Assembly: GCA_028282585.1 (NCBI GenBank)
Contig: JANQHR010000032.1
Span: forward strand, 1-46,616
Source of the DNA: Bacteroidales bacterium
GTDB lineage: Bacteria; Bacteroidota; Bacteroidia; Bacteroidales; UBA12077
DNA: 46,616 bases
Direction: 5' to 3'
Shown here: piece after piece, positions 7,012-30,358 of the stretch
Layout: every line of letters starts with the position of its first letter
Numbering within the stretch: position 1 is the first letter of the stretch
The notes under the pieces: model-generated
Databases searched by the model: none
What the model saw: the letters and a program-made list of their open reading frames with translations, nothing else
What the model was told of the DNA's origin: nothing
Program-made: the position numbers and the translations under genes

Positions 7012-9408
7012 TTAAAATTTCAAATTTACACTTAAAATCAAGTTCCTCCCTGGTGCAGCAATACCTGAAGAATAAGGTCTGTAGCGATTGTCTAAAATAT
7101 TCTCTAATCCAACATTAACAACTGCCCAATCTTTATAATTATATGCTGTCATTAAATTTAAAGTCCACCAAGCCGGAGAATAAGGATTCCCATTATCGTC
7201 GATTGCATACATATATGGTTTCCCCTGCTCGCTTGGTGCTAAATCTTCATATTTAATTTCTCCGTTATAATTTACAAACAACGAAGCAGTTATCTTCTCA
7301 TTTGAATATTTAATACTTGTGCTTCCAAACAATGGTGCAGCATGTCGTAATGCAACTCCATCCTGATCTTCACCATGCGTATAGTTTACGATAGATTCCA
7401 GTTCAATGCCTTTAGTAAACTCAATGTTTAAAGAAGAACTGAACCCGTATATATATGCCTTATCAGCATTTACAATTGCGAGTACTTTACTTAATTCTCC
7501 TTTATAATAAATGGAATCCTGACCGTTAAAGGTAAAATCCCTTCGTACAAAAGCGTTTGTTAAAAATGTATAATATCCGGTTATATCGAAGTTTACTTTT
7601 CCCCAGAGTTTTTTCTGTATTCCAAGGTCAACATTATATGCATATTCTGGTTTTAGGTCTTTGTTAGGTACTATGATACTTCCGGGTTCAGGATCGAAAA
7701 TCTTTGCGACATCATCAACATTCGGAGCATGAAATCCTGAGGATAGATTTAAGTTTAATTGCCAGTTCTTGTTTGGCTTATAAACCAAACCTAACGAACC
7801 GTTAACCGCACCATTGTTAATTGATATTTCATTAAAAGGGAAATTAAAAAAGCTGGTGTCCTCCACAGTAGAATTAAGACTTACATAATTTGCACGAATA
7901 CCTGCAATTGTAGTAAATTTTTCACTTAAATTTTCCTTATAACTTAGATAAGCTGCAAGTGTTGAATAATGGTTCTCTCCATCAGGATAACGACTCTGAG
8001 TTTTAACCTTTTCACCAGAATTAATGTTTTTTATGTGCGCTGTAGAATTCACGGAATTATAAATAGCCTCAAATCCATAAAATATCTGATTTTCTCTGGA
8101 TAAGTTTTTGTCAAAATCAAGATTTAAAGAATAAGCTTTTACTTTTTCGAAAGATTCTGTTAATTCTTCACTTCTATATTTTCTATCATGGCGGCTTTCC
8201 TGATAATCTTGATAAGCAACAGTTAGCTTAAAATCATTAAAAAACTTGCTCGGTTTTGAATAATTCAAATTTAAGCTATGCATCATCCATTTTTGAGGGC
8301 CATAATACCAATCTCCGAATTCTAAATTGCCATTTCTATATCTAATTAATCTGTCGTAGCGAGGCACATCCGAAAGTTTTGAATAATGGAAAGCATAAAT
8401 CAAATCAAGATCCTTGCCTGGCCTAAACCGTAACTTTTGCAAGATATTAAATTGATTAAAAGCCGACTCAACCTGAACGTTTGGATTATTGTTGTTAACA
8501 ACAGAATCAACACCATCTATTTGAGTAACATACTCCGATCTTTGATATTCTTCATTATTATAGTCTCCCATTTGGAGGTCATCATAATCGCTAAAACTTA
8601 AACTTGTTATTGATGCCCATTTTGAAGATCCAATGTTAAGGTCGATATGTCCCGTTTTCTCAAAATTTGCCGATGAATAGCGCATCAAAGCACTTCCGGA
8701 AATCTCCGTTCTTTCGCTGGTAGATAGTTTAGGTCTTAAAGTATGAAAATCCATTACTCCACCTAAAGCATCGCTACCATAGGTAACTGAGCCCGGACCG
8801 AAAATAACTTCACTACTTTGAATTGCATTAGCATCTAACGAAATTATATTTTGAACATTTCCTTCGCGAAAAATTGCATTATTCATTCTTACTCCATCTA
8901 CGACTAAAAGAATTGTATTTGTAGCAAATCCTCGAATCATAGGACTACCCCCTCCTAATTGGCTTTTTTGGACAAAAACTTCATTCGATTTAGCCAATAG
9001 ATCTGCTGTTGTTTGAGGGCTTGCAAATCTTATTTCTTCCTGGGTAATTCTTGTAATTTTATTTGGAATCTCATTTTTGTTCTGTTCCCAGCGATAAGCT
9101 GAAATCACAAATTCTTCTATTTCAAAAACCTTCTTTTCCAGGTAAAATTCAAATTGCCTTAATTCTGATTTTTTAAATTGTATTTCTTTATAGGATGCGT
9201 GTTGAATTGTAATCAGTTCATCCGAAAAAAAATCGGCTATATTAACTTCTCCATTTATATCCGAAATGGCAGACTTTGTTCTATCCTCATTAAATACCGC
9301 CACATTCGCAACCGATTCCTTAGTTTCAGCATCTTTAAATTGAAGTGTTTGACTGAATGAAAAAACAGTGAAAAGTAAACATAAAAGGGCTAAAATCGTT
9401 TTCTTCAT
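7012..9408 (-). CDS. TonB-dependent receptor
   Basis: Signal peptide (MKKT...FS|Q); plug motifs SPMIRG, LLVVDGVR, EVIFGPGSVTYGSDALGGV; NILDNRY...PGRN; terminal Phe. Start moved to ATG 9408. Confidence 0.93.
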   Translation of the reverse strand: MKKTILALLCLLFTVFSFSQTLQFKDAETKESVANVAVFNEDRTKSAISDINGEVNIADFFSDELITIQHASYKEIQFKKSELRQFEFYLEKKVFEIEEFVISAYRWEQNKNEIPNKITRITQEEIRFASPQTTADLLAKSNEVFVQKSQLGGGSPMIRGFATNTILLVVDGVRMNNAIFREGNVQNIISLDANAIQSSEVIFGPGSVTYGSDALGGVMDFHTLRPKLSTSERTEISGSALMRYSSANFEKTGHIDLNIGSSKWASITSLSFSDYDDLQMGDYNNEEYQRSEYVTQIDGVDSVVNNNNPNVQVESAFNQFNILQKLRFRPGKDLDLIYAFHYSKLSDVPRYDRLIRYRNGNLEFGDWYYGPQKWMMHSLNLNYSKPSKFFNDFKLTVAYQDYQESRHDRKYRSEELTESFEKVKAYSLNLDFDKNLSRENQIFYGFEAIYNSVNSTAHIKNINSGEKVKTQSRYPDGENHYSTLAAYLSYKENLSEKFTTIAGIRANYVSLNSTVEDTSFFNFPFNEISINNGAVNGSLGLVYKPNKNWQLNLNLSSGFHAPNVDDVAKIFDPEPGSIIVPNKDLKPEYAYNVDLGIQKKLWGKVNFDITGYYTFLTNAFVRRDFTFNGQDSIYYKGELSKVLAIVNADKAYIYGFSSSLNIEFTKGIELESIVNYTHGEDQDGVALRHAAPLFGSTSIKYSNEKITASLFVNYNGEIKYEDLAPSEQGKPYMYAIDDNGNPYSPAWWTLNLMTAYNYKDWAVVNVGLENILDNRYRPYSSGIAAPGRNLILSVNLKF

Positions 9409-17362: not shown

Positions 17363-18064
17363 ATGAAAAAAATTTTAACTCTACTAACAATTGTATTTCT
17401 TTTTTCCGTTCATGCAAATGCTCAGATTTTTATTAATCCTATTGCAGGAAAACAGAGTCATCCGGAATTAGAGATCATCAAAATTAATATTACCGATAAA
17501 GAAACAATAATCTTCTTGAAAGTAACTAACAAACTAAATCAGGGAGGGTGGTTTTGTGCCAATGAAAATATATATATTAAAAACTCAAAAGGAACGGAAA
17601 TTTATAAATTAATAAAATCAGACAATATTCCTACCTGTCCAAATCAATTTGAATTTTCGTACTCCGAACAAACTTTGGAATTTACACTTTATTTTCCACC
17701 TATTTCTAAAGAAATTACGTTTTTAGATTTAATAGAAAGTTGTAACAATGCTTGTTTTTCATTTAATGGAATTATTTTAGACAATGAACACAATGAGAAA
17801 ATAAGGGCTTTTGAAAAAGGATTTGATCTTTATAAACAAAAGCAAAACCAAGCTGCAATTCCGTATTTTGAAAAAGTAGTATCAAATAAAGTAACTCTTG
17901 ATTCGCATATTTATGGGCTTTCTTATTATTATCTAATCATAATTAATAATGAGTCAGGTAACCGAGAAAAAGTCGATTTTTGGTATCAAAATTTAGCTAA
18001 TTCTGAACTCGAAGATAAAAACACTTTTATTAAGGAACTGGAAAAATCTGGAATAAAAAAATAG
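17363..18064 (+). CDS. Secreted hypothetical protein with C-terminal TPR-like helices
   Basis: Signal peptide from ATG 17363 (ANA|Q); beta-rich domain with 4 Cys and LYFPPI..LDLIE; helical tail AAIPYFEK. Confidence 0.7.
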   Translation: MKKILTLLTIVFLFSVHANAQIFINPIAGKQSHPELEIIKINITDKETIIFLKVTNKLNQGGWFCANENIYIKNSKGTEIYKLIKSDNIPTCPNQFEFSYSEQTLEFTLYFPPISKEITFLDLIESCNNACFSFNGIILDNEHNEKIRAFEKGFDLYKQKQNQAAIPYFEKVVSNKVTLDSHIYGLSYYYLIIINNESGNREKVDFWYQNLANSELEDKNTFIKELEKSGIKK

Positions 18065-18092
18065 GTTCACATGGCTGTGAACCTATTTTTTT
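18055..18092. terminator. Bidirectional intrinsic terminator
   Basis: AAAAAAATAGGTTCACA-TGGC-TGTGAACCTATTTTTTT, a perfect inverted repeat between convergent genes. Confidence 0.9.
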
Positions 18093-18096
18093 ATTA

Positions 18097-18600
18097 CTAT
18101 GTAAAAATAATTTGTGATCCTTCGCCTCCTGCCATTGAATAAAAATCTCCAACTGTTATAATATCAATAACATGATCGCTTAAATCTTTTTTCTCTAATT
18201 TAAACATATCAACAGCTAATTTACAGGCATAGATTTCTCCGCCTCCGGCAGTTATCATATCTAAAAATTCATCAACCGGTGGTACATCAAGTGCATCCAT
18301 TTGCTTTTTCATCATTGATGAAACACCAGCCTCAACTCCTGGTAACATACCTAATAGTGAAGGGAAAGGTAATCCACCCGGCATACGCATTGCAGGATTT
18401 CCAACTGTTGCGGTATGTAATTTATTCATTCTTTTTTTAGTAATCGCGTCTAAACCAAAGAATGTAAAGAATAACTTAGCTTCCATTCCTTCCATAACGG
18501 CGCCATTTGCCATTACCAAAGCAGCATATACGTCCTCAATTGTACCTTTAGCACAAATGATAGCTACTTTTTTAACTTGAGTATCTTTTTTTTCTGCCAT
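18097..18600 (-). CDS. DsrE/DsrF/DrsH-like (DsrE2-type) sulfurtransferase
   Basis: LFFTFFGL, IYACKLA conserved Cys, ends in IIFT. Confidence 0.88.
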   Translation of the reverse strand: MAEKKDTQVKKVAIICAKGTIEDVYAALVMANGAVMEGMEAKLFFTFFGLDAITKKRMNKLHTATVGNPAMRMPGGLPFPSLLGMLPGVEAGVSSMMKKQMDALDVPPVDEFLDMITAGGGEIYACKLAVDMFKLEKKDLSDHVIDIITVGDFYSMAGGEGSQIIFT

Positions 18601-18616
18601 AATAAAAAGTCATTAA

Positions 18617-18922
18617 TTAAACACAACTTGTTGGTTTAGAAATACCTGCAATTTTAGAAGATAGCTTTAACGGCCCTCCTGGGAAAAGTTCATAGAATCC
18701 CTTAATATCGACTATACCAGATTTTCCAACTTTACGAATCGTTAGACTGTCTCCTGCGTTTTCACGGATAAATTTTAATACTTCGAAATGCTTTTCTGTT
18801 AATTCAATGCTTTCCTCCTTAGCTAATTCTTTTGCAATATCCTCGTTCCATTGAGATGAGTCTACCAAAAACCCCTCATCCGTTACTTCAAGGTTTACAC
18901 CTGCTATTGTTTTTTGTGCCAT
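18617..18922 (-). CDS. TusE/DsrC/DsvC family sulfur relay protein (single C-terminal Cys)
   Basis: DEGFL..W, LTEKHF, LFPGGP, KIAGISKPTSCV C-terminus. Confidence 0.9.
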   Translation of the reverse strand: MAQKTIAGVNLEVTDEGFLVDSSQWNEDIAKELAKEESIELTEKHFEVLKFIRENAGDSLTIRKVGKSGIVDIKGFYELFPGGPLKLSSKIAGISKPTSCV

Positions 18923-18960
18923 AATTATTGTTTTAATAGTTAATTATTATTTGTTTGAAA

Positions 18961-19632
18961 TTAATTCTTTGATAAATTTTTCATAAATGTCATAATAAAT
19001 CCTAATCCTCGTTTCATTTCCGGCGTATTCATTTCACGGAAAACTTTCCATAATGAATATTCCGGAATATTATCCGTATCAAGATTTTTAAATATACTTA
19101 CAGCATTATTAATTGCATGCAGCATATCTGGTTGAGTTAAGTTTTTAACTGTATCTAAAATGGTAACAATATTATCTGCTAATGCTTTTACATCTTCGGG
19201 TGGGTAACTTGAAATTATGTTATCCATAACTCTGGTTAGCTCCTTAAAGAATTCAAAATACCCTTTTTGCTCGAACTCATGTAATTTATTTGTAATGTCA
19301 ATACCAACTTCATTTATAATTGGGCCTGCATCTTTTATTAAATCTGTAACGCTTTCGAACATATCCATAACCTGAGAAAAATTGTTAACATTTCTCACCA
19401 ACTTATATATTAACAGCTTAATATCATTAACATTAAGTTCTATTCCTTGCTTGTCAAGTTCGTAAACTACATCCGAAAAAGCATCCTTGCTTATTATTGA
19501 AACGTCGGATACCAAATCTTCAATCATTTCGCTTTTTAACCTTTGCTCGTTCATGTAACCAATTAATAAATCAAGTTTCTGATTGATTTCATTAATTTGT
19601 ACCTGAACATTATCTGATTTAACTTCCATCAT
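18961..19632 (-). CDS. DUF1641 domain helical protein
   Basis: All-helical; C-terminal SLWKVFREMNTPEMKRGLGFIMTF amphipathic motif; sits directly after the SQR-like gene. Confidence 0.8.
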   Translation of the reverse strand: MMEVKSDNVQVQINEINQKLDLLIGYMNEQRLKSEMIEDLVSDVSIISKDAFSDVVYELDKQGIELNVNDIKLLIYKLVRNVNNFSQVMDMFESVTDLIKDAGPIINEVGIDITNKLHEFEQKGYFEFFKELTRVMDNIISSYPPEDVKALADNIVTILDTVKNLTQPDMLHAINNAVSIFKNLDTDNIPEYSLWKVFREMNTPEMKRGLGFIMTFMKNLSKN

Positions 19633-19646
19633 TTTCTAATTTTGAA

Positions 19647-20879
19647 TTAAGATTTCTTCTTACCAGCCATGGACATATGATTCTCTATCGGAAGTTCTTT
19701 TCCTTTTAATAGCATGTGCCAATAAATCCATCGGAAAATTACCTTTCCATAGTGGTTCATTTTAGTATTTTGTAATAAACCAAACGGGCCAATACCTGGA
19801 AGCGGATAAGTTCCTGGAAGTGGTTCTGTTTCGTAATTAAAGTCTATTAATGAACCTTTGCCAAATCCTGTTTCGATATAACAATTAGCATGACCATCAA
19901 ATTTTGCTCTAAGCTCTCTACCCTTAATTGCACATAGCAAGTTGTCGAATAGAACCTCTGCGGCAAAATGAACTACGGAACCTGCCTTAGAAGTTGGAAT
20001 ATTTGAAGCATCACCTAATACAAATATATTTTCATGTTTTTCCGATTTTAAGGTGTGCTTGTCAGTAGGTATAAAATTAAGGTCATCACCCATACCACTT
20101 CTTTCAACCATATCATCTCCCTTATTAACCGGAACAATGGTTAAAACATCGAAAGGAATTTCCTGCCCATCGTAAGATTTAATTTTCTTCTCCTTATTGT
20201 CAACACTTTCCAGATAAAACTCGGGAACAACCTTAATGTTTTTTTCTTTTAATAATTCTCCTAACATTTTTGTTGCAATAGGCTTTGTAAATGCTCCGGG
20301 TAAAGGTGTTACATAAGTGATATCTACCTTATCTCTTATCCCTGCATTTGTAAAATATTCATCGGCCAAGAAGACAAATTCAAGAGGAGCAACCGGGCAT
20401 TTAAATGGTAATTCAGCAATATTCATTACCAATTTTCCACCATGCCATGTTTCAAAAAATTCTTGCAGTGCAACAGCTCCTTCAACAGTATAAAAATCAA
20501 ATATTTCTTTGCGCCATAATTCACCTTTTAACCCAGGAGTCTCTTCCGGATCAATTCTTGTTCCTGTCGCTACAATAAGAAAATCATAATTTAGAACCTT
20601 ACCTTCTTTTAACAATACTTTATTTTCTTCAGGAACAATTTTATCAATATCACTATATTCTATATTTACACCAGACGGTATGAAATTAGCCTTTGGCTTA
20701 ATTACATCCTGTTTATTGTACATGCCAAAAGGTATAAACAAAAATCCCGGTTGATAATAATGTGTTTTATGCTTATCGACAACGGTGATATCCCATTCTT
20801 CTCTACCAAGGGCTTTTCTTAACTTATTAGCCATAATAGTTCCGCCTGTACCAGCGCCCAATATTAGAATCTTTTTCAT
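19647..20879 (-). CDS. sqr: Sulfide:quinone oxidoreductase-like flavoprotein (type III-like)
   Basis: GAGTGG FAD motif, HYYQPG, ATG, FKCPVAPLE, LGDA, SKAGS, DGHANCYIETG. Confidence 0.85.
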   Translation of the reverse strand: MKKILILGAGTGGTIMANKLRKALGREEWDITVVDKHKTHYYQPGFLFIPFGMYNKQDVIKPKANFIPSGVNIEYSDIDKIVPEENKVLLKEGKVLNYDFLIVATGTRIDPEETPGLKGELWRKEIFDFYTVEGAVALQEFFETWHGGKLVMNIAELPFKCPVAPLEFVFLADEYFTNAGIRDKVDITYVTPLPGAFTKPIATKMLGELLKEKNIKVVPEFYLESVDNKEKKIKSYDGQEIPFDVLTIVPVNKGDDMVERSGMGDDLNFIPTDKHTLKSEKHENIFVLGDASNIPTSKAGSVVHFAAEVLFDNLLCAIKGRELRAKFDGHANCYIETGFGKGSLIDFNYETEPLPGTYPLPGIGPFGLLQNTKMNHYGKVIFRWIYWHMLLKGKELPIENHMSMAGKKKS

Positions 20880-20929
20880 TTTAGATATTTTTTATATTAT
20901 TTTTAGGTTGTTATTAATATTTACTGTTA

Positions 20930-20946
20930 CAAAATTAACAAATATA
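20930..20946 (-). promoter_or_regulatory. Tandem -7 boxes for the sqr operon
   Basis: TAATTTTG (20937-20930) and TATATTTG (20946-20939) on the minus strand. Confidence 0.45.
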
Positions 20947-20968
20947 AACATATTTACATCTTTACATA

Positions 20969-20986
20969 TTATGATATATATCATAA
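20969..20986. promoter_or_regulatory. Crp/Fnr-type operator
   Basis: Perfect palindrome TTATGATATATATCATAA containing TGAT-N4-ATCA, between divergent sqr and Crp/Fnr genes. Confidence 0.7.
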
Positions 20987-21018
20987 GTAACAAATATCTT
21001 CCGAAGGTAAGTAATTAA

Positions 21019-21714
21019 ATGGATACATTAAACACTACAAGCAACTGTAAAACTTGCATCTATAAATCCTGGGCATTTAAAAATCTAAGCGAAGAGGAAT
21101 TAAAAGTTATAAACTGCAAGAAAACTGAAAAGTTTTATCGTAAAGGTGAAATTATTTGTTCCGAAGGTGATGAAATCAATTCTTTTATGTATCTGCAAAA
21201 CGGCTTAGTAAAGCTATTCAAGACGGAAAGTAATAAAAGAGAACATATTATAAGTATAGCCAAACCAAAAGATTTTATTGGATTATTAAGTATATTTTCA
21301 AATACAAACCATATTTATTCAATTTCAGCCATAGAAGACTCGGTAGTTTGCTTTGTAGATTTAAAAATTATTAGAGATCTAATTAAAAGTAATGGCAATT
21401 TTGCTTTAGATTTTTTTGAAAGAATTAGCTCAGTTTCAGATGCTGTAATTAAAACGCGTATCAATATTAATACCAGGCAATTACGAGGAAGAATTGCTTA
21501 TATTCTATTATTGTTCTCAAAACATATTTATGATTCAGAAAAGTTTAATTTGCCAATTAGCCGTAAAGAAATAGCCGAACTTATTGATATGAGCACAGAA
21601 AATGTTATCAGGGTTTTATCAGAATTTAGAAAAGATAAGCTTATTCAAATAGAAGGAAAGAGTATTGAGATCCTAGATATTAATCGTCTTGAAAAAGTAT
21701 ATGACCTTGGTTAA
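21019..21714 (+). CDS. Crp/Fnr family transcriptional regulator
   Basis: N-terminal CxxC, cNMP-binding-like domain, HTH SRKEIAELIDMSTENVIRVLSEF. Confidence 0.93.
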   Translation: MDTLNTTSNCKTCIYKSWAFKNLSEEELKVINCKKTEKFYRKGEIICSEGDEINSFMYLQNGLVKLFKTESNKREHIISIAKPKDFIGLLSIFSNTNHIYSISAIEDSVVCFVDLKIIRDLIKSNGNFALDFFERISSVSDAVIKTRININTRQLRGRIAYILLLFSKHIYDSEKFNLPISRKEIAELIDMSTENVIRVLSEFRKDKLIQIEGKSIEILDINRLEKVYDLG

Positions 21715-24498: not shown

Positions 24499-25341
24499 CT
24501 AATATTCCCATAAATCGTGTTCCATTTCAAATAATTCTTGCTTAATTTTTTCCGCTTCGTGTAGAACATTTAAACCTTGCATATATGCTTGTACTTCTCT
24601 ATTTTCATAAACGTTTGTTTCCCTTACAATATAGCTATTAAATCTCCTTTGAAAAAATACATCATCAAAACTAATACGTTGTGCATCATTTCTTCTATTG
24701 AACACTTCTTGTCCTGCTAATAAAGGTCTTGCTTCAGGAAAATAAACCCAAAAAGTTCTCCTTTTTCTTACTTGTCCTGTTTCAATATCCATGTACCTTC
24801 GAATCGGGCAAACTCCAAGCACTCTTACGTTCATTGTAGAATGTTGCTTATCAAAATACCATTGTTCCTTTATTTCATACTGATATACCTCATCATACTT
24901 TACTTCACCTTCAATAACAGTTTCAACTAATTCCCCGGTATTAGGATCAGGAACAAACTGAGTATCCGGAAGCGCATCAAACATTTGATAAACTTCATCT
25001 CTTGTAGCTAACTGTTTAAATTCATCATCATGAAATACTGTTAAGCCTTCATTATTAATTCCGTAGATTAATAAACTAATTAAACTTTTTCTGTCATCCA
25101 TATCAACTATTGGATAATAGAAAGGATGATTCATTTTCTCTCTACAATCAATGATTTGCCAAATCTTTTTTGTCCACAATATATCTGCTTCACGCATAGC
25201 AGGATATGGCACGGGTCTTTTACCAGGTATGTTTTCTTTAATATATATACCATCATTTACATTTTGTGCAATAGTTTGTTGTTTATTGAAAAATGTACCA
25301 ACAATACCTAGTAACAGTAAGACAACAAAAAACTTTTTCAT
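24499..25341 (-). CDS. gldN: T9SS/gliding ring protein GldN/PorN
   Basis: READILW.K.IW..ID.REKMN.P.YYP, WYFDK, FWVYFPEAR, RRFNSYI, EHDLWEY. Confidence 0.93.
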   Translation of the reverse strand: MKKFFVVLLLLGIVGTFFNKQQTIAQNVNDGIYIKENIPGKRPVPYPAMREADILWTKKIWQIIDCREKMNHPFYYPIVDMDDRKSLISLLIYGINNEGLTVFHDDEFKQLATRDEVYQMFDALPDTQFVPDPNTGELVETVIEGEVKYDEVYQYEIKEQWYFDKQHSTMNVRVLGVCPIRRYMDIETGQVRKRRTFWVYFPEARPLLAGQEVFNRRNDAQRISFDDVFFQRRFNSYIVRETNVYENREVQAYMQGLNVLHEAEKIKQELFEMEHDLWEY

Positions 25342-25360
25342 AGCTATATTTTTATAAATT

Positions 25361-26995
25361 TTAAATTATTTCGAATACAATAGGAGCCAAACTTCTTACA
25401 CTACCGTCTGGGCCCACAGCTTTAACATCTTCAATATTTAATCTTTGCGATCTTCTTAAATTTCTAATTAAATCCAATTGTTGTTTTGTAAAAACATTAC
25501 CTTTGGTGCTTGCATCAATTGTATATCCACCCCTATCTGTAGTTGATACAGTAAATTCTGTAATTTTAAATTCCAAATCAAATTCAAAATTCTCCATAGC
25601 CGCAAATACGCCTGTTTGAGCAGCTAATACATTTCTTTCAATTTTTCCTCCTTTTTTTCCTGCAACCTGAACAACCGGATCAGGTAATCCTCTTACTCTA
25701 AATTGAGCAACTCCCATATTCTTGGATTCTCCCTCTATTTCTGCTCTAACAGAAATAATACTATTTCCTGGTCTTTTTGGATTTACTACGTATTCACCAT
25801 CCCTTTGCTTTCTGATTACACCATTTGTTATTGAAGGTGATATTTTATCTCCTGGAATTCCGGCAATGGAAATACTTACTGGATTATCAACTCCAACATA
25901 AAATAAATTCATTTTTGTAGGAGATACAACTAAATTAGGTTTTGCAACCTGAAATTCTCTTCTAAAGGTTTTTGTTATAAAATTTCCGTCCGGATCTTGT
26001 AGCTTAATAATCCCACCCCAAGTTTGTTTTCCCAACTCTGATCCCATTCTGGAAAATTTACCTCTTCCGTTAACAATCTCAAGCGAATCATATTGACCAA
26101 CCATCTCATAATCATATAGTCCCGTCTCCTCATTTAGCGTGGAATCATATCTTCCTACATATACAATTGGCGCTGCCGTTGTATCAAATGCTGCAATAAA
26201 CACATCTGCTTTATAAGGATTCCCTTGTAAAACATAGCTCGTATTTGGGATGACTGTAGCTTCTAGTTTGTTAAACGGTATTGAACCAGCTGATATTTGG
26301 TTAAACAGGAATTGAACTACTTCAGCTTCTGTATTTCTAATATCTAATTGTATTTTTGTTAATAAAGGAAATACTGCTGCAAGGGGTAAATGATAAAAAT
26401 GTTTAACCTCCCAACTCTTCTTTTCTCCATCTTCTGTTTTTGGCGGATCACTAGTATCCAGATTCGTCTCTAGTGAATGTATTAAAGTCTGATTATCTTC
26501 ATCAACGAGACTCAACATAAACTCGCGATATTCCTTTATTTTCTCCCTTAACTCAAATGCTTTACCATCATTTTCACCAATTAAAACATTCGTTGGAATA
26601 TCATGTTTATCCTTACTTTTTATATGTTCGCCATGAATTTTCCCCTCTTCTGTGATAACACCGTCCTCAGGATCTCCTTGTCCATTTTTGGTTAGTATTT
26701 CAATTTTAATATCCTGAATATATTCAATTAATTCATCTGATCTTTTTTTAACATCATCAGCCCTGTTTTTCCATGGACCTACTTTTTGCTCATTTTGCAG
26801 GTACTGTTGATTAAATTCGGTATATAGACCCTGATTTTTTTCCGTATAAATTTCCGTTGTTTTAACCAAACCTTCATCAACTGCAGCAAAAGCATCTAAA
26901 ACTTCAGCAGAAACGTTTAGAGCTAACATGGCTGTTAACACCAAATACATCATACCAATCATTTTCTGCCGGGGAGTTTCTTTACCGCCACCCAT
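25361..26995 (-). CDS. gldM: T9SS/gliding motor rotor GldM/PorM
   Basis: ETPRQKMIGMMYLVLTAMLALNVS, KMNLFYVGVDNP. Confidence 0.96.
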   Translation of the reverse strand: MGGGKETPRQKMIGMMYLVLTAMLALNVSAEVLDAFAAVDEGLVKTTEIYTEKNQGLYTEFNQQYLQNEQKVGPWKNRADDVKKRSDELIEYIQDIKIEILTKNGQGDPEDGVITEEGKIHGEHIKSKDKHDIPTNVLIGENDGKAFELREKIKEYREFMLSLVDEDNQTLIHSLETNLDTSDPPKTEDGEKKSWEVKHFYHLPLAAVFPLLTKIQLDIRNTEAEVVQFLFNQISAGSIPFNKLEATVIPNTSYVLQGNPYKADVFIAAFDTTAAPIVYVGRYDSTLNEETGLYDYEMVGQYDSLEIVNGRGKFSRMGSELGKQTWGGIIKLQDPDGNFITKTFRREFQVAKPNLVVSPTKMNLFYVGVDNPVSISIAGIPGDKISPSITNGVIRKQRDGEYVVNPKRPGNSIISVRAEIEGESKNMGVAQFRVRGLPDPVVQVAGKKGGKIERNVLAAQTGVFAAMENFEFDLEFKITEFTVSTTDRGGYTIDASTKGNVFTKQQLDLIRNLRRSQRLNIEDVKAVGPDGSVRSLAPIVFEII

Positions 26996-27014
26996 AATTT
27001 AATTCCTATTTAAA

Positions 27015-27980
27015 TTATTTATTATTTAGATTCATTGCAGAAAGCATATTTCCATAAACATTATTTAATGCTGCGAGATTGTTATTTAGCTTCGCTATTT
27101 CCTCTCTATAAACGTTTGTTTCTTCAACAGAACCTTTTAGATTATTCATTATCCCATCTAGTTCACCAAATAAAGTTTTTGAAGTTTTTAAATGCTCATT
27201 TGTACTTTGCATTTGCAATTCATATACTGAATTTAACGCAGAAATATTTTTATTTAGTGCTTCCAGTTTTTCATTATAACTTTGATTTCCACTAGAAATT
27301 AACTCAACATTTGTCTGTATTTTTTCTTCAATACTTTTGTAATTTGATAAAAATCCTTCACTAGCTTGCGCAAATTGTTCTGCTGCACTTTTACTCGATT
27401 CATCAATTATTTCTGAAGACTTCTTGTACGTATCAACTAATCCTTCCACAGAACCGCTAAGTTGGCCTGCGGACTCACTATAAGATTCAGTCATCGAAGA
27501 TAATGATTCCGATGCAGCTTGAATATTATCTACAAACTGATTAGTTGCTTGTGCAGCATCAGCCACATTCATTAAATTCTTGGTTGTTTGATTTAGGTTT
27601 TTCAATCCTTTCCCTAATTGTTCAAATAATTCAGGTTTAATATCCGCTTGTTCAAGCATTTCATCCAATTTCCCATAGCCTCCACCTTTTACTGGTTCAA
27701 ATTTTTTTGATCCGGGTTTAAAATCCTCATCTTCACTTATTCCTGCCAATTCAGGATAAACCAAAGTCCAATCCACCTCTTCATGCATTGGTTCAAATGC
27801 TGAAAAGAAGAATATAACTACTTCTGTACCCATTCCAATTATCAACATAGTAGTTGCCAGAGGCCAGTGATTAATCTTAAATAATGCACCAAGAATAACC
27901 AAAGCAGCTCCCCACCCATATAACTTGCCCATAAAGTTCTTCCAACCTGAACTTTGAACTATTTCTGAAATATTGATCAT
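27015..27980 (-). CDS. gldL: T9SS/gliding motor stator GldL/PorL
   Basis: GAALVILGALFKI.HW, TEVVIFFFSAFEP, WTLVYPEL, C-terminal VYGNMLSAM. Confidence 0.96.
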   Translation of the reverse strand: MINISEIVQSSGWKNFMGKLYGWGAALVILGALFKINHWPLATTMLIIGMGTEVVIFFFSAFEPMHEEVDWTLVYPELAGISEDEDFKPGSKKFEPVKGGGYGKLDEMLEQADIKPELFEQLGKGLKNLNQTTKNLMNVADAAQATNQFVDNIQAASESLSSMTESYSESAGQLSGSVEGLVDTYKKSSEIIDESSKSAAEQFAQASEGFLSNYKSIEEKIQTNVELISSGNQSYNEKLEALNKNISALNSVYELQMQSTNEHLKTSKTLFGELDGIMNNLKGSVEETNVYREEIAKLNNNLAALNNVYGNMLSAMNLNNK

Positions 27981-28012
27981 AACCCAAAATGTTTAAATTT
28001 CCAAAAATTTTG

Positions 28013-29341
28013 CTAGTTAACTCCTAGATACGAACGAACGCATCTGAAGCCTATATATGATTTTGCAGAATCCTGAAATTCATAAGTTCTTGTACCATTT
28101 TGTAAAAAATATCCTATATCTTTCCATGACCCACCTCTTATTACCTTACGTTTCATTGTTGGCGGATCATCCGGTAACGCGTCATATTTATAATCAGGGT
28201 TCATATCATGCATAAAGCTATAAGCCGATTCATCAAACGCATTTGCGGTCCATTCAGAAACGTTTCCGGCCATATCAAATAAACCATATTCGTTTGGTGC
28301 ATAACTACCTACTGAGACAGGAATCATTCCTCCGTCGTCTACATAATTTCCTCTCAATGGTTTAAAGTTAGCAAGGAAACATCCAATCTTATTTCTTGTA
28401 TACATTCCTCCCCAAGGATACATAGATAAATCAAGATTTCCTCGTGCAGCATATTCCCACTCTGATTCACTAGGTAATCTGTAGTCTTGAACAAATCCTT
28501 CACCATCAGACATTAATTCATTATTAAGGAATTGAGTTCTCCAAACTGTAAATGCACTTGCTTGTTTCCATGTTACACCCACCACTGGATAATTGTCATA
28601 TGAAGGATGCCAAAAATACATATTTGTATAAGGCTCGTTAAATGAGTAAGTAAAATCACTTATCCAACATAGTGTATCAGGATATACGTTAATAACGTCT
28701 CTTAATACAAAAGCAGACCTATCTTCTACATCCATTCTCTCCCCTTGAGCATTAATCGCAGAGCCAGTATATTCTTTCGTATCAAAATTATATCGATTTG
28801 ATTTCATTGCAGCTTGCTTCATATCAACTTTATAGTACTCATACATCAATTTCCGAGTATCAACTTCTTTGCGACGATAAAACCTTTCATGCTCAGCTAA
28901 ATACAACTCGTCCAAAATTTCAGAAATTTCTTCATCCATCATATCAATCTCAACTTCCCAATTGATATACGGAGGTTCAATTGGATTACCAAACTCGTCC
29001 TCAGCAATTACAAAGTCTTCAATTTGATCTCCTAATTTTCTTCTCATTATTGAATCACGAACCCAGAATACAAACTGGCGATACTCATTATTAGTTATTT
29101 CCGTTGCATCCATCCAGAATGCATCAACAGAAACAGTTCTTTGATATGCGGTCATTGCCCAAGCTACATCCTGATCACTTGGACCCATATTAAAACTTCC
29201 CATTGGGACAAATACCATTCCATATGGTGTGGATTCAAACCACCCCTTTCGTCCTTGAACTCCGGTCAGCTCTCCGGCATTATATCTACTACAGCTGAAT
29301 GAGATTGCCAATAATAAACTAACAATAAGTAATTTTTTCAT
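28013..29341 (-). CDS. gldK: T9SS/gliding lipoprotein GldK/PorK
   Basis: Lipobox FSC; FGE-sulfatase-fold motifs TEITNNEY, YPVVGV, RLPSESEWEYAARG, DMAGNVSEW, GFRCV. Confidence 0.94.
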   Translation of the reverse strand: MKKLLIVSLLLAISFSCSRYNAGELTGVQGRKGWFESTPYGMVFVPMGSFNMGPSDQDVAWAMTAYQRTVSVDAFWMDATEITNNEYRQFVFWVRDSIMRRKLGDQIEDFVIAEDEFGNPIEPPYINWEVEIDMMDEEISEILDELYLAEHERFYRRKEVDTRKLMYEYYKVDMKQAAMKSNRYNFDTKEYTGSAINAQGERMDVEDRSAFVLRDVINVYPDTLCWISDFTYSFNEPYTNMYFWHPSYDNYPVVGVTWKQASAFTVWRTQFLNNELMSDGEGFVQDYRLPSESEWEYAARGNLDLSMYPWGGMYTRNKIGCFLANFKPLRGNYVDDGGMIPVSVGSYAPNEYGLFDMAGNVSEWTANAFDESAYSFMHDMNPDYKYDALPDDPPTMKRKVIRGGSWKDIGYFLQNGTRTYEFQDSAKSYIGFRCVRSYLGVN

Positions 29342-29404
29342 GATATTTCAAATGTTTATATTTTGCAAAATAACAATAATTCTTCAATTTAATATTAATT
29401 ATCT

Positions 29405-30358
29405 TTATAAAAATCTTATACTCCTATACTTTTCTGGTGTCTTATCCTTTTTCACATCAACACAAAAACCCATAACAATTTCGTGCGTTCCATCATTATA
29501 TCCGATCATATCTGATACTATAAAATCGTATGAATAACTAACTTTTACCCAGTTAAATAATTCCATTCCAAAAATACCAGAAATTGCATTATCCGTTCTT
29601 AAAGAAACGCCACCCCATATCTTTTTATTGTATTCAATTATACCATTTACCGCTAACTGAGTATTTGCAATGTCTGACATTACAAATACATTAGGTTTGA
29701 AAGCCCACAATGGATTAGAAAAGGGCAAATTATATCCGGCTGAAACATAATAATGTCTTTTTAAAATAGTGGATACTGTTGAACTTTGCCCAGAACTCTC
29801 ATCTTCCTTTTGAAATTCAAATTCTGTTTTATATAATTGTGTTGAAGATAAGCCTAAATATAAATCCGGTGTTTTGTAATAAAGTCCAAAGCCAAAATCC
29901 ATAAATGAAATATCATTTCCCGATTCTGGAGGAATGGCTGGATCCTGACCATGATCAATCTCAGGAGTATCCCACGAAGCATCAAGCGATGTATTTGCAA
30001 TACCCCATTTTATTCCAACTCCCAAATTACCGTTCCCAACTGGTAGCTTATAAGCTATTGAAATATTAGCTCTTAAATCATTTTCAAATCCTACTTCGCT
30101 ATTTTCTATTGATAACCCCAGCCCAAATCGTTTAACGGCGCCATCAACATTAAATAAAGTTGTAGATGGTGCTCCATCAAATCCTGTCCATTGTAACCGC
30201 TGCATAGCATAAGCACAAATTTTGTCTTCACTACCTGCATAGCCAGGATTTACCAATAATTTATTGAACATGATTTGAGTAAATTGAGGATCTTGCTGAG
30301 CTTTTAAAAGCAATGAAAATATTAAAAGTAGAGAAAATAAAAAAACCTGTTTTTTCAT
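29405..30358 (-). CDS. porP: PorP/SprF family T9SS beta-barrel
   Basis: AQQDPQFTQ.MFN..NPGYAG, R.QW.G..GAP, YSYD, GTHE; directly upstream of gldK. Confidence 0.92.
   Translation of the reverse strand: MKKQVFLFSLLLIFSLLLKAQQDPQFTQIMFNKLLVNPGYAGSEDKICAYAMQRLQWTGFDGAPSTTLFNVDGAVKRFGLGLSIENSEVGFENDLRANISIAYKLPVGNGNLGVGIKWGIANTSLDASWDTPEIDHGQDPAIPPESGNDISFMDFGFGLYYKTPDLYLGLSSTQLYKTEFEFQKEDESSGQSSTVSTILKRHYYVSAGYNLPFSNPLWAFKPNVFVMSDIANTQLAVNGIIEYNKKIWGGVSLRTDNAISGIFGMELFNWVKVSYSYDFIVSDMIGYNDGTHEIVMGFCVDVKKDKTPEKYRSIRFL

Follow-up and report, generated by a model that had tools for sequence, protein, structure and literature searches.

The DNA considered here is a stretch of 46,616 nt, contig JANQHR010000032.1 of the Bacteroidales bacterium assembly GCA_028282585.1, referred to below as the window; coordinates are those of the whole stretch unless another contig is named. 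It contains four co-oriented genes that encode a sulfide:quinone oxidoreductase (SQR) of type III, a DUF1641 protein and two small proteins related to the sulfur carriers TusE and DsrE2, next to a divergently oriented gene for a Crp/Fnr-family regulator. The region is probably one regulated operon for cytoplasmic sulfide oxidation. A more specific reading is put forward tentatively, namely that the SQR would sit on a quinone tube formed by the DUF1641 protein, a member of the 'helical membrane plugin' (HMP) family, and would pass its sulfane sulfur to the DsrE2-like and then to the TusE-like protein as its physiological acceptors, with no free polysulfide being released.

The four genes lie on the minus strand in the order SQR (19647..20879, 410 aa), DUF1641/HMP (18961..19632, 223 aa), TusE-type (18617..18922, 101 aa) and DsrE2-like (18097..18600, 167 aa), with intergenic gaps of 14, 38 and 16 nt, the DUF1641 gene starting 14 nt after the SQR gene. 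An intrinsic terminator hairpin on the same strand (18052..18095) begins two bases past the stop codon of the DsrE2-like gene and consists of a stem of 20 pairs followed by a run of T. Its RNA fold has an energy of -24.3 kcal/mol (z = -10), a stability that none of 200 shuffled sequences reached, and as it is located between convergent genes it may be used in both directions. The regulator gene (21019..21714, plus strand, 231 aa) is separated from the SQR gene by a spacer of 139 nt (20880-21018), which holds a palindromic operator. A preliminary description of the region had listed four co-oriented genes with gaps of 14-38 nt, a strong terminator that closes the operon, and the operon's own divergent Crp/Fnr regulator and operator; all of these are borne out. 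The gene identities it proposed (SQR-like flavoprotein, DUF1641, TusE/DsrC, DsrE2 and Crp/Fnr) are supported by the Pfam and NCBIfam matches given below, and no further sulfur genes were found among all 37 open reading frames (ORFs) of the window; it had listed dsrAB, tusBCD/mnmA, persulfide dioxygenase, rhodanese, sox and hdr genes as absent there.

The SQR and the two carrier genes are co-inherited across genomes. A scan of named genome records yielded 80 loci, mostly from metagenome-assembled genomes (MAGs) of Bacteroidales and other Bacteroidota. At least four of the records are of cultured strains, namely Prolixibacter bellariivorans ATCC BAA-1284 (locus L073), Labilibacter sediminis CG51 (L080) and two Carboxylicivirga strains, and the labels of other cassette-bearing MAGs include Saprospiraceae, Chitinophagaceae, Lutibacter, Planctomycetota, Balneolota and Rhodothermales/Rhodothermota. 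When the flanking ORFs of the 80 loci were clustered, the SQR was recovered in 80, the TusE-type gene in 78, the DsrE2-like gene in 72, the DUF1641 gene in 71 and the divergent regulator gene in 52. Around the cassette no further family of genes is conserved in this set; the remaining shared clusters are antisense shadow ORFs or genes of close relatives. Addition of 29 loci from a phylum sample, and removal of three in which the SQR is cut by a contig end (L060, L100 and L106), gave a pooled set of 106 loci. Here 73 have the order SQR-DUF1641-TusE-DsrE2 and 23 the order SQR-TusE-DsrE2, while a contig end truncates five and in the last five the SQR stands alone. With the TusE and DsrE2 genes directly after the SQR gene in 96 of the 106 loci, the arrangement is far beyond chance.

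Two of the loci deserve separate mention. The whole cassette is present in a record labelled Thiohalospira sp. (Pseudomonadota; L035), whose SQR is 92% identical to that of the window and nests among the Bacteroidales in the tree; the contig has probably been mis-binned. In a Bacteroidales MAG (L094) the cassette is intact except for a gene for an IS66-family transposase (7932-9302), which is inserted after the DUF1641 gene and before the TusE gene.

A comparable picture emerged from an even sample of 401 Bacteroidota genomes, in which the coordinates of the SQR matches and of the matches to PF04358 (the DsrC/TusE family) were compared by hand. The type III SQR model was matched over its cut-off in 98 genomes, 58 of which belong to one family (f25). 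Because this family, with genomes of 2-3 Mb, represents another class and carries DsrC and AprA, we take it to be Chlorobia-like. Outside f25 the PF04358 gene lies directly downstream of this SQR in 39 of 39 genomes. The gap between the two is ~20-140 nt in 28 of these; in the other 11 it is ~720-840 nt, which corresponds in length to a DUF1641 gene. Eight of the 11 gave a direct match to DUF1641, and for G005, G131 and G361 its presence is deduced from the gap. A PF04358 match without this SQR occurs in only three non-f25 genomes (G197, G241 and, as a weak hit, G345). The TusE-type gene in Bacteroidota outside f25 is thus essentially an SQR accessory. Co-occurrence across Bacteroidota genomes had been set beforehand as a test of the cassette, and the 39 genomes answer it in the affirmative.

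The situation within f25 is different. In the five f25 loci that were examined the SQR stands alone, without carrier genes, and in one of them the neighbours are unrelated genes; TusE, DsrE2 and DUF1641 are lacking next to members of the same SQR family in, for instance, G310:C10, G306:C28, G210:C22 and G242:C25. In several f25 genomes a true dsrC gene (135-145 bits) shares a contig with the SQR, at a distance of 1.6 to ~31 kb.

The product of the first gene matches the type III SQR model NF049943 with 660.6 bits (cut-off 525) over model positions 1-406, in addition to a Pyr_redox_2 domain. The FAD motif GAGTGG is found at residues 8-13. Among solved structures the closest is the human type II enzyme SQOR (8dhk/6oi5; E ~1e-48), which aligns over the full length (residues 3-393), and both of its active-site cysteines have a counterpart, C161 and C333, kept in 81 and 80 of 81 relatives, respectively. 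SQOR needs an acceptor to remove the persulfide from the enzyme, and its acceptors are small molecules (glutathione, sulfite), whereas dedicated protein acceptors are proposed here.

Some type III SQRs are selenoproteins, with the selenocysteine in a motif HxxU (2026 review). The SQR described here reads H330-A-N-C333 at that site, without an in-frame stop, and is therefore the cysteine form of a family that has selenocysteine members. Internal stops are absent from the listed over-cut-off matches to the SQR model in the 401 Bacteroidota genomes. The genome does use selenium, as it encodes the tRNA 2-selenouridine synthase MnmH (contig C45, 8423-9463; 367.9 bits against a cut-off of 241), yet its SQR is the cysteine form.

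The second gene product is all-helical and devoid of cysteine, and is therefore no sulfur carrier. It matches PF07849 (DUF1641) at its C-terminus (residues 187-222; 32.5 bits, cut-off 21). Searched singly against the PDB, the sequence gave no match with E below 0.3. A profile built from 37 relatives, by contrast, matches ForE1/YjgD (8rqz), a part of the formate dehydrogenase ForCE of B. subtilis, with E 4.7e-6 over ~120 residues (profile positions 106-224). The DUF1641 protein is thus homologous to ForE; in the same PDB searches neither YjlC nor HucM was matched, and ForE1 by the profile only.

The homology is informative, as the HMP proteins HucM, ForE and Ncp/YjlC are described in the main texts of two studies of 2026 as tetrameric tubes (PMC13524794, PMC13433803). 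According to the same texts the tubes dock quinone-reducing enzymes (Huc, ForCE and the type 2 NADH dehydrogenase, NDH-2), contact the membrane and conduct quinone. Most HMP genes adjoin SQR genes, and the SQR has been proposed as the ancestral partner (PMC13433803, main text); the pairing of SQR and HMP is already in print as a genomic observation. In the text of PMC13524794 the Ndh-Ncp pair is confined to Bacillota and SQR serves only as an outgroup. The preliminary description was right to count DUF1641 as a member of the gene set; the protein is no longer an unknown, its family being that of the HucM/ForE/Ncp scaffolds, with the SQR pairing published (PMC13433803, main text). The passages of PMC13433803 and PMC13524794 on the HMP proteins describe no purified or solved SQR-HMP complex and do not mention TusE or DsrE2.

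By analogy, the DUF1641 protein is predicted to scaffold the SQR, to tether it to the membrane and to provide a conduit for its quinone. It resembles the components of the HMP complexes (HucSLM, ForCE, Ndh-Ncp/YjlC) in its C-terminal DUF1641 domain, in the ForE1 profile match and in the position of its gene beside that of a monotopic quinone reductase. It differs in that the pair is joined here to two sulfur carriers. A second difference concerns the membrane contact of the enzyme: the HMP papers report, in their main texts, that the C-terminus of B. subtilis Ndh has been repurposed for docking (PMC13524794, PMC13433803), whereas the SQR described here keeps the conserved C-terminal amphipathic segment. 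This segment is conserved in SQRs with and without a neighbouring DUF1641 gene. In a quick tree of 74 SQRs the presence of DUF1641 takes five parsimony changes, of which the starred branches force at least two.

Two further observations touch the enzyme-scaffold pair. Many SQRs from the three-gene form of the cassette have an additional C-terminal tail of ~8-14 residues, often acidic (loci L007, L008, L011, L017, L018, L020, L022, L026, L027 and L030), whereas the DUF1641-linked SQRs lack such a tail and end in ...MAGKK(K/R). In the archaeon Ignicoccus hospitalis a DUF1641 protein and an adjacent FAD-dependent pyridine nucleotide-disulfide oxidoreductase (Iho_0672/0673) are increased 10-fold and 5-fold, respectively, in co-culture with Nanoarchaeum (PMC3149612, Table 3), possibly an archaeal counterpart of this enzyme-scaffold pair.

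Each of the two remaining proteins has a conserved cysteine in a position that suits a sulfur carrier. The product of the third gene matches PF04358 with 88.7 bits and TIGR03342 (the TusE/DsrC/DsvC family) with 76.7 bits (cut-off 53.5). Its penultimate residue, Cys100, lies on the C-terminal arm and is kept in 77 of 79 relatives; a second cysteine column is lacking, and a serine occupies the position of CysB of DsrC. From these residues the protein reads as a TusE-type, that is single-cysteine, member of the DsrC/TusE family. DsrC proper was considered and is ruled out by the sole cysteine C100, the serine at the CysB position and the lack of a NIR_SIR domain in the genome.

The product of the fourth gene matches Pfam family PF13686 (DrsE_2) with 97.6 bits, against a cut-off of 25. 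Its cysteine C126, in the motif YAC, aligns with the cysteine of 2qs7 and of 3pnx and is kept in 72 of 73 relatives, and C16 in 60 of 73. The best PDB match is 2qs7, a homotrimeric DsrE2B according to the passages on this structure in PMC11094781.

The regulator has a cNMP-binding domain (PF00027) and a Crp-type helix-turn-helix domain (PF13545), and the solved structure closest to it is that of a Crp/Fnr protein which is itself uncharacterised (2gau). Three cysteines, C10, C13 and C111, are invariant in 53 of 53 relatives, and a fourth occurs at varying positions. C10 and C13 form an N-terminal CxxC, and C111 aligns with the cysteine of the 'MVCEIP' segment of FNR (PDB 5cvr/9qlt), a position that is an Fe-S ligand in FNR. 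The regulator gene is divergent from the SQR gene in 52 of the 80 named loci, and the core of the operator, TGA-N6-TCA, which has the spacing of FNR and CRP boxes, recurs in 44 of 52 intergenic regions from related loci, where it is often present twice at a distance of 16 bp. In the window the operator is the perfect 16-nt palindrome TATGATATATATCATA (20970..20985, strandless). Most of the close relatives (L032-L059) have both copies at that distance; the window spacer keeps only the promoter-proximal one, the distal copy being degenerate.

Upstream of the SQR gene two boxes of the form TAnnTTTG, presumably the -7 promoter element of Bacteroidota, are found in overlapping register (20930..20946, minus strand). 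One of them (20930-20937) is located 40 nt from the centre of the operator and the second at 31 nt; among 38 upstream regions in which operator and box both occur, 25 show the spacing of 40 nt. The boxes are a putative promoter for the SQR operon. It is reasonable to suppose that the operator takes an activator-like position and that the cysteine set of the regulator would be sensitive to oxygen or to persulfide. With FNR, the [4Fe-4S] oxygen sensor (5cvr/5e44), the regulator shares the domain architecture, the N-terminal CxxC, the cysteine aligned with 'MVCEIP' and the TGA-N6-TCA operator.

Combined, these data suggest the following mechanism. All four operon proteins are taken to be cytoplasmic; the SQR would then lie at the membrane's inner face, and the zero-valent sulfur would be made inside the cell. 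By homology with SQOR, the SQR would oxidise H2S on Cys161/Cys333 and FAD and reduce menaquinone. The DUF1641/HMP protein would serve the enzyme as a structural partner; by analogy it would form a helical tube on which the SQR docks, in contact with the membrane, and along which quinone passes. The sulfur would leave the SQR as a protein persulfide rather than as free polysulfide, with two cysteines as candidate acceptors, Cys126 in the DsrE2-like protein and Cys100 in the flexible tail of its TusE-like neighbour. We give direct protein-to-protein transfer from the SQR to the carriers roughly an even chance. DsrE-fold and DsrC/TusE-fold proteins pass a cysteine persulfide in the DsrEFH-DsrC relays of sulfur oxidisers and in TusBCD-TusE of E. 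coli, and on the model of these relays the likely order would be SQR, DsrE2, TusE, although this order is held with somewhat less confidence than the transfer itself. The carriers would buffer the sulfur and pass it onward to a putative sink. Finally, the FNR-like regulator would bind the palindrome TGATATATATCA upstream of the promoter, and the operon would probably be switched on at low oxygen or by sulfide or persulfide.

Several results limit the support for this proposal. No RNA sequencing run is listed for the locus, and the one strong DNA run may be its source sample. Prediction of a 1:1 complex of SQR and DUF1641 gave a median score of 0.40, against 0.00 for the best of three controls. 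Of 80 solved complexes 58 reached the mark of 0.40, as did two of 110 mismatched pairs, and passes at a score of 0.60 or below comprise only seven of the 80 solved complexes and both passing mismatches. The prediction runs share at least 45% of their contacts, with a partner pLDDT of at least 62. This modelling, which the preliminary description had suggested, gives weak support to a physical complex. The AlphaFold2 model of the all-helical DUF1641 monomer is poor (pLDDT 47), which may be expected for an intertwined oligomer. The DUF1641 gene is missing in 23 of the 106 related loci and, judged by gap size, in ~28 of the 39 even-sample genomes; because so many loci lack it, and the C-terminal segment of the SQR is the same either way, the scaffold is dispensable for the core of the system.

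Similar reservations apply to the carriers, the regulator and the fate of the sulfur. The TusE-like protein scores below the TusE equivalog NF008562 (60 against 191) and the DsrE2-like protein below the DsrE2 equivalog NF047629 (103 against 210), so that the behaviour of the two carriers cannot be read from the named families; the function of DsrE2A of A. vinosum is itself called unclear in the part of PMC11094781 that treats it. The regulator falls below all FNR/CRP equivalog cut-offs (FnrL 64.3 against 300; Fnr 62.3 against 228), which, together with its having only three invariant cysteines, sets it apart from FNR. As for a sink, profile searches of the genome, which is 98% complete in 173 contigs, gave no NIR_SIR match, and with it no sulfite reductase of the DsrAB or CysI type. 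Nor was a confident persulfide dioxygenase found: there are 18 matches to the metallo-beta-lactamase (MBL) fold, the 11 longer of which were read as frames, and none of the five of the 18 that were scanned against NCBIfam, for which no general persulfide dioxygenase model is known, matched a model of that type (best, Blh NF040641, 55.8 against 625).

The remainder of the genome also qualifies the word 'self-contained' that the preliminary description had used. It fits the window and the conserved neighbours of the cassette, and the single SQR, DUF1641 and PF04358 genes of the genome are all in the operon. It does not fit the genome as a whole, which encodes an aprBA-qmoABC cluster, three rhodanese-domain proteins (one of them MnmH) and three other small DsrE-like genes, the best DsrE-like protein scoring 31 against 89 on TusD. 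As electron sinks a cytochrome bd and a COX1-type oxidase are encoded. Of the absences that had been noted for the window, those of dsrAB (no NIR_SIR domain), of TusB and, among the five of 18 MBL-fold proteins scanned, of persulfide dioxygenase extend to the genome.

An alternative for the carriers is a role in biosynthesis, in which the SQR persulfide would be delivered via DsrE2 and TusE to MnmA, for the 2-thiouridine of tRNA, or to thio-cofactors, replacing the route IscS-TusA-TusBCD. In E. coli MnmA has TusE as its direct partner, and MnmA is present in the genome (380.8 bits). The preliminary description had pointed to tRNA thiolation with tusBCD encoded elsewhere as a competing role of TusE; no match to DsrH/TusB (PF04077) or to TusA was found in the 98% complete genome, so that the refutation framed in these terms fails. 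In their absence a DsrE2-TusE pair could take the place of TusBCD-TusE. Moreover, the genome lacks an assimilatory sulfite reductase domain and so depends on reduced sulfur. The genomic distribution points the other way, since the TusE gene is tied to the SQR and not to mnmA (directly after the SQR in 39 of the 42 non-f25 genomes with a DsrC/TusE-family gene), and the SQR is over its cut-off in only about a quarter of the sampled Bacteroidota (98 of 401), whereas tRNA thiolation is general. The low score of the protein against the TusE equivalog adds to this, and an FNR-like switch of its own, together with a quinone scaffold, would suit an operon for respiration or detoxification more than one with a housekeeping task. 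We regard the biosynthetic role as unlikely.

The aprBA-qmoABC cluster raises the question whether sulfide is oxidised completely to sulfate in this genome, the SQR cassette feeding the cluster via a putative sulfane-to-sulfite step. The genes aprB, aprA, qmoA, qmoB and qmoC are found on contig C101 (~76318-83451; locus L124, 4319-11452), with 203 bits against 135.65 for aprB, 877.7 against 641.75 for aprA, 401.9 against 300 for qmoC, and two HdrA-like Qmo subunits. No enzyme was found for the step between sulfane and sulfite, with neither a NIR_SIR domain nor, within the scan described above, a confident persulfide dioxygenase; a single CCG-domain protein was found, and the ATP sulfurylase PF01747 was found neither in the genome nor in 12 relatives. 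A complete apr-qmo set without a NIR_SIR domain or PF01747 is unusual for a Bacteroidales genome. In the even sample aprA exceeds its cut-off in 22 of the 401 genomes, namely 20 of f25, G361 and the genome of the window (G000), that is, in only two of ~314 non-f25 genomes. Complete oxidation is considered quite unlikely as the purpose of the cassette in this genome. Apr/Qmo was also considered as the general sink of the cassette and was rejected, with aprA over its cut-off in only two of the 40 cassette-bearing non-f25 genomes (G000 and G361). An ORF with an FlpD domain (707-721 aa), similar to the QmoB of the genome, is found in six of the 13 same-genus genomes that were searched.

The preliminary description had also allowed for reverse operation, in which menaquinol would reduce polysulfide, or the persulfide on a carrier, to H2S, for sulfur respiration or for the removal of sulfane sulfur. 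The carriers could present sulfane sulfur to the enzyme and FNR-type control would suit an anaerobic respiration. The menaquinone couple is, however, far more positive than the sulfur/sulfide couple, and reduction by menaquinol would run uphill without an extra input of energy. No result of the analysis favours the reductive direction, and the idea of a polysulfide reductase finds no support. Characterised type III SQRs, among them that of Caldivirga (Lencina et al. 2013, as cited in PMC10205796), couple the oxidation of sulfide to the reduction of quinone, according to the passages on these enzymes in PMC10205796. Reverse operation is thus very unlikely. That the flavoprotein has another substrate altogether, for instance as an NADH:quinone or CoA-persulfide reductase-type enzyme with carriers that serve differently, is suggested by the structural closeness of SQR and NDH-2 and by the HMP scaffolds that serve NDH-2 in Bacillales, and is highly improbable given its 660 bits on the SQR model against 47 or less on other flavoprotein models, its SQR cysteines (both invariant but for one relative at C333) and the fact that its best solved relatives are all SQRs.

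Sulfide oxidation with transfer to the carriers can be compared with several known systems, of which the SQR-TusA-DsrE2 operon of Methylacidiphilum fumariolicum SolV (MFUM_v2_0219-0221) is the closest studied precedent. It likewise consists of a type III SQR gene followed by two small carrier genes, one of them of the DsrE2 type, and the role of the carriers is putative in both. The passages of PMC10205796 that treat this operon report a 1.7-fold increase in expression with H2S and propose that it converts sulfide to zero-valent sulfur, for detoxification and energy gain. The first carrier is TusA-like there and a single-cysteine member of the TusE/DsrC family here. The same passages mention no DUF1641/HMP gene; the organism belongs to the Verrucomicrobiota, and the regulator is another one.

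With the relays Rhd-TusA-DsrE2, DsrEFH-DsrC and TusBCD-TusE the cassette shares carrier cysteines that are conserved at homologous positions. The cassette differs in its genomic setting, which lacks matches to DsrAB, DsrH/TusB and TusA, in the missing second DsrC cysteine of its TusE-like protein, and in the proposed sulfur donor, which is the SQR and not a rhodanese or IscS.

The combination of SQR, DUF1641, TusE and DsrE2 in Bacteroidota was not found in full-text literature searches. This is in line with the earlier statement that a pathway with this gene set has not been characterised in the phylum, no paper having been found that describes the four genes together. The novelty holds for the four-gene combination and not for an operon of SQR and sulfur carriers as such, which has the studied precedent in M. 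fumariolicum (PMC10205796, in the passages referred to above).

A few kb from the operon (24499-30358) the window encodes a gliding/type IX secretion cluster, with GldN, GldM, GldL, a GldK-like protein with an FGE-sulfatase domain, and PorP/SprF, which has no relation to the sulfide genes.

The cassette is common in Bacteroidota, uncharacterised, and testable in cultured strains. If the proposed mechanism is true, its SQR would be the first with protein acceptors, and SQR would become the fourth enzyme class shown on an HMP scaffold. The DsrC/TusE-family proteins in Bacteroidota outside the Chlorobia-like lineage would then essentially be SQR partners. For the removal of zero-valent sulfur from bacterial SQRs in the cytoplasm the cassette offers two candidate single-cysteine acceptors. 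It also provides a case for the published prediction that the HMP quinone-conduit scaffolds have SQR as a partner, possibly as their ancestral one. The handling of sulfide by sediment- and host-associated heterotrophs may rest on this cassette.

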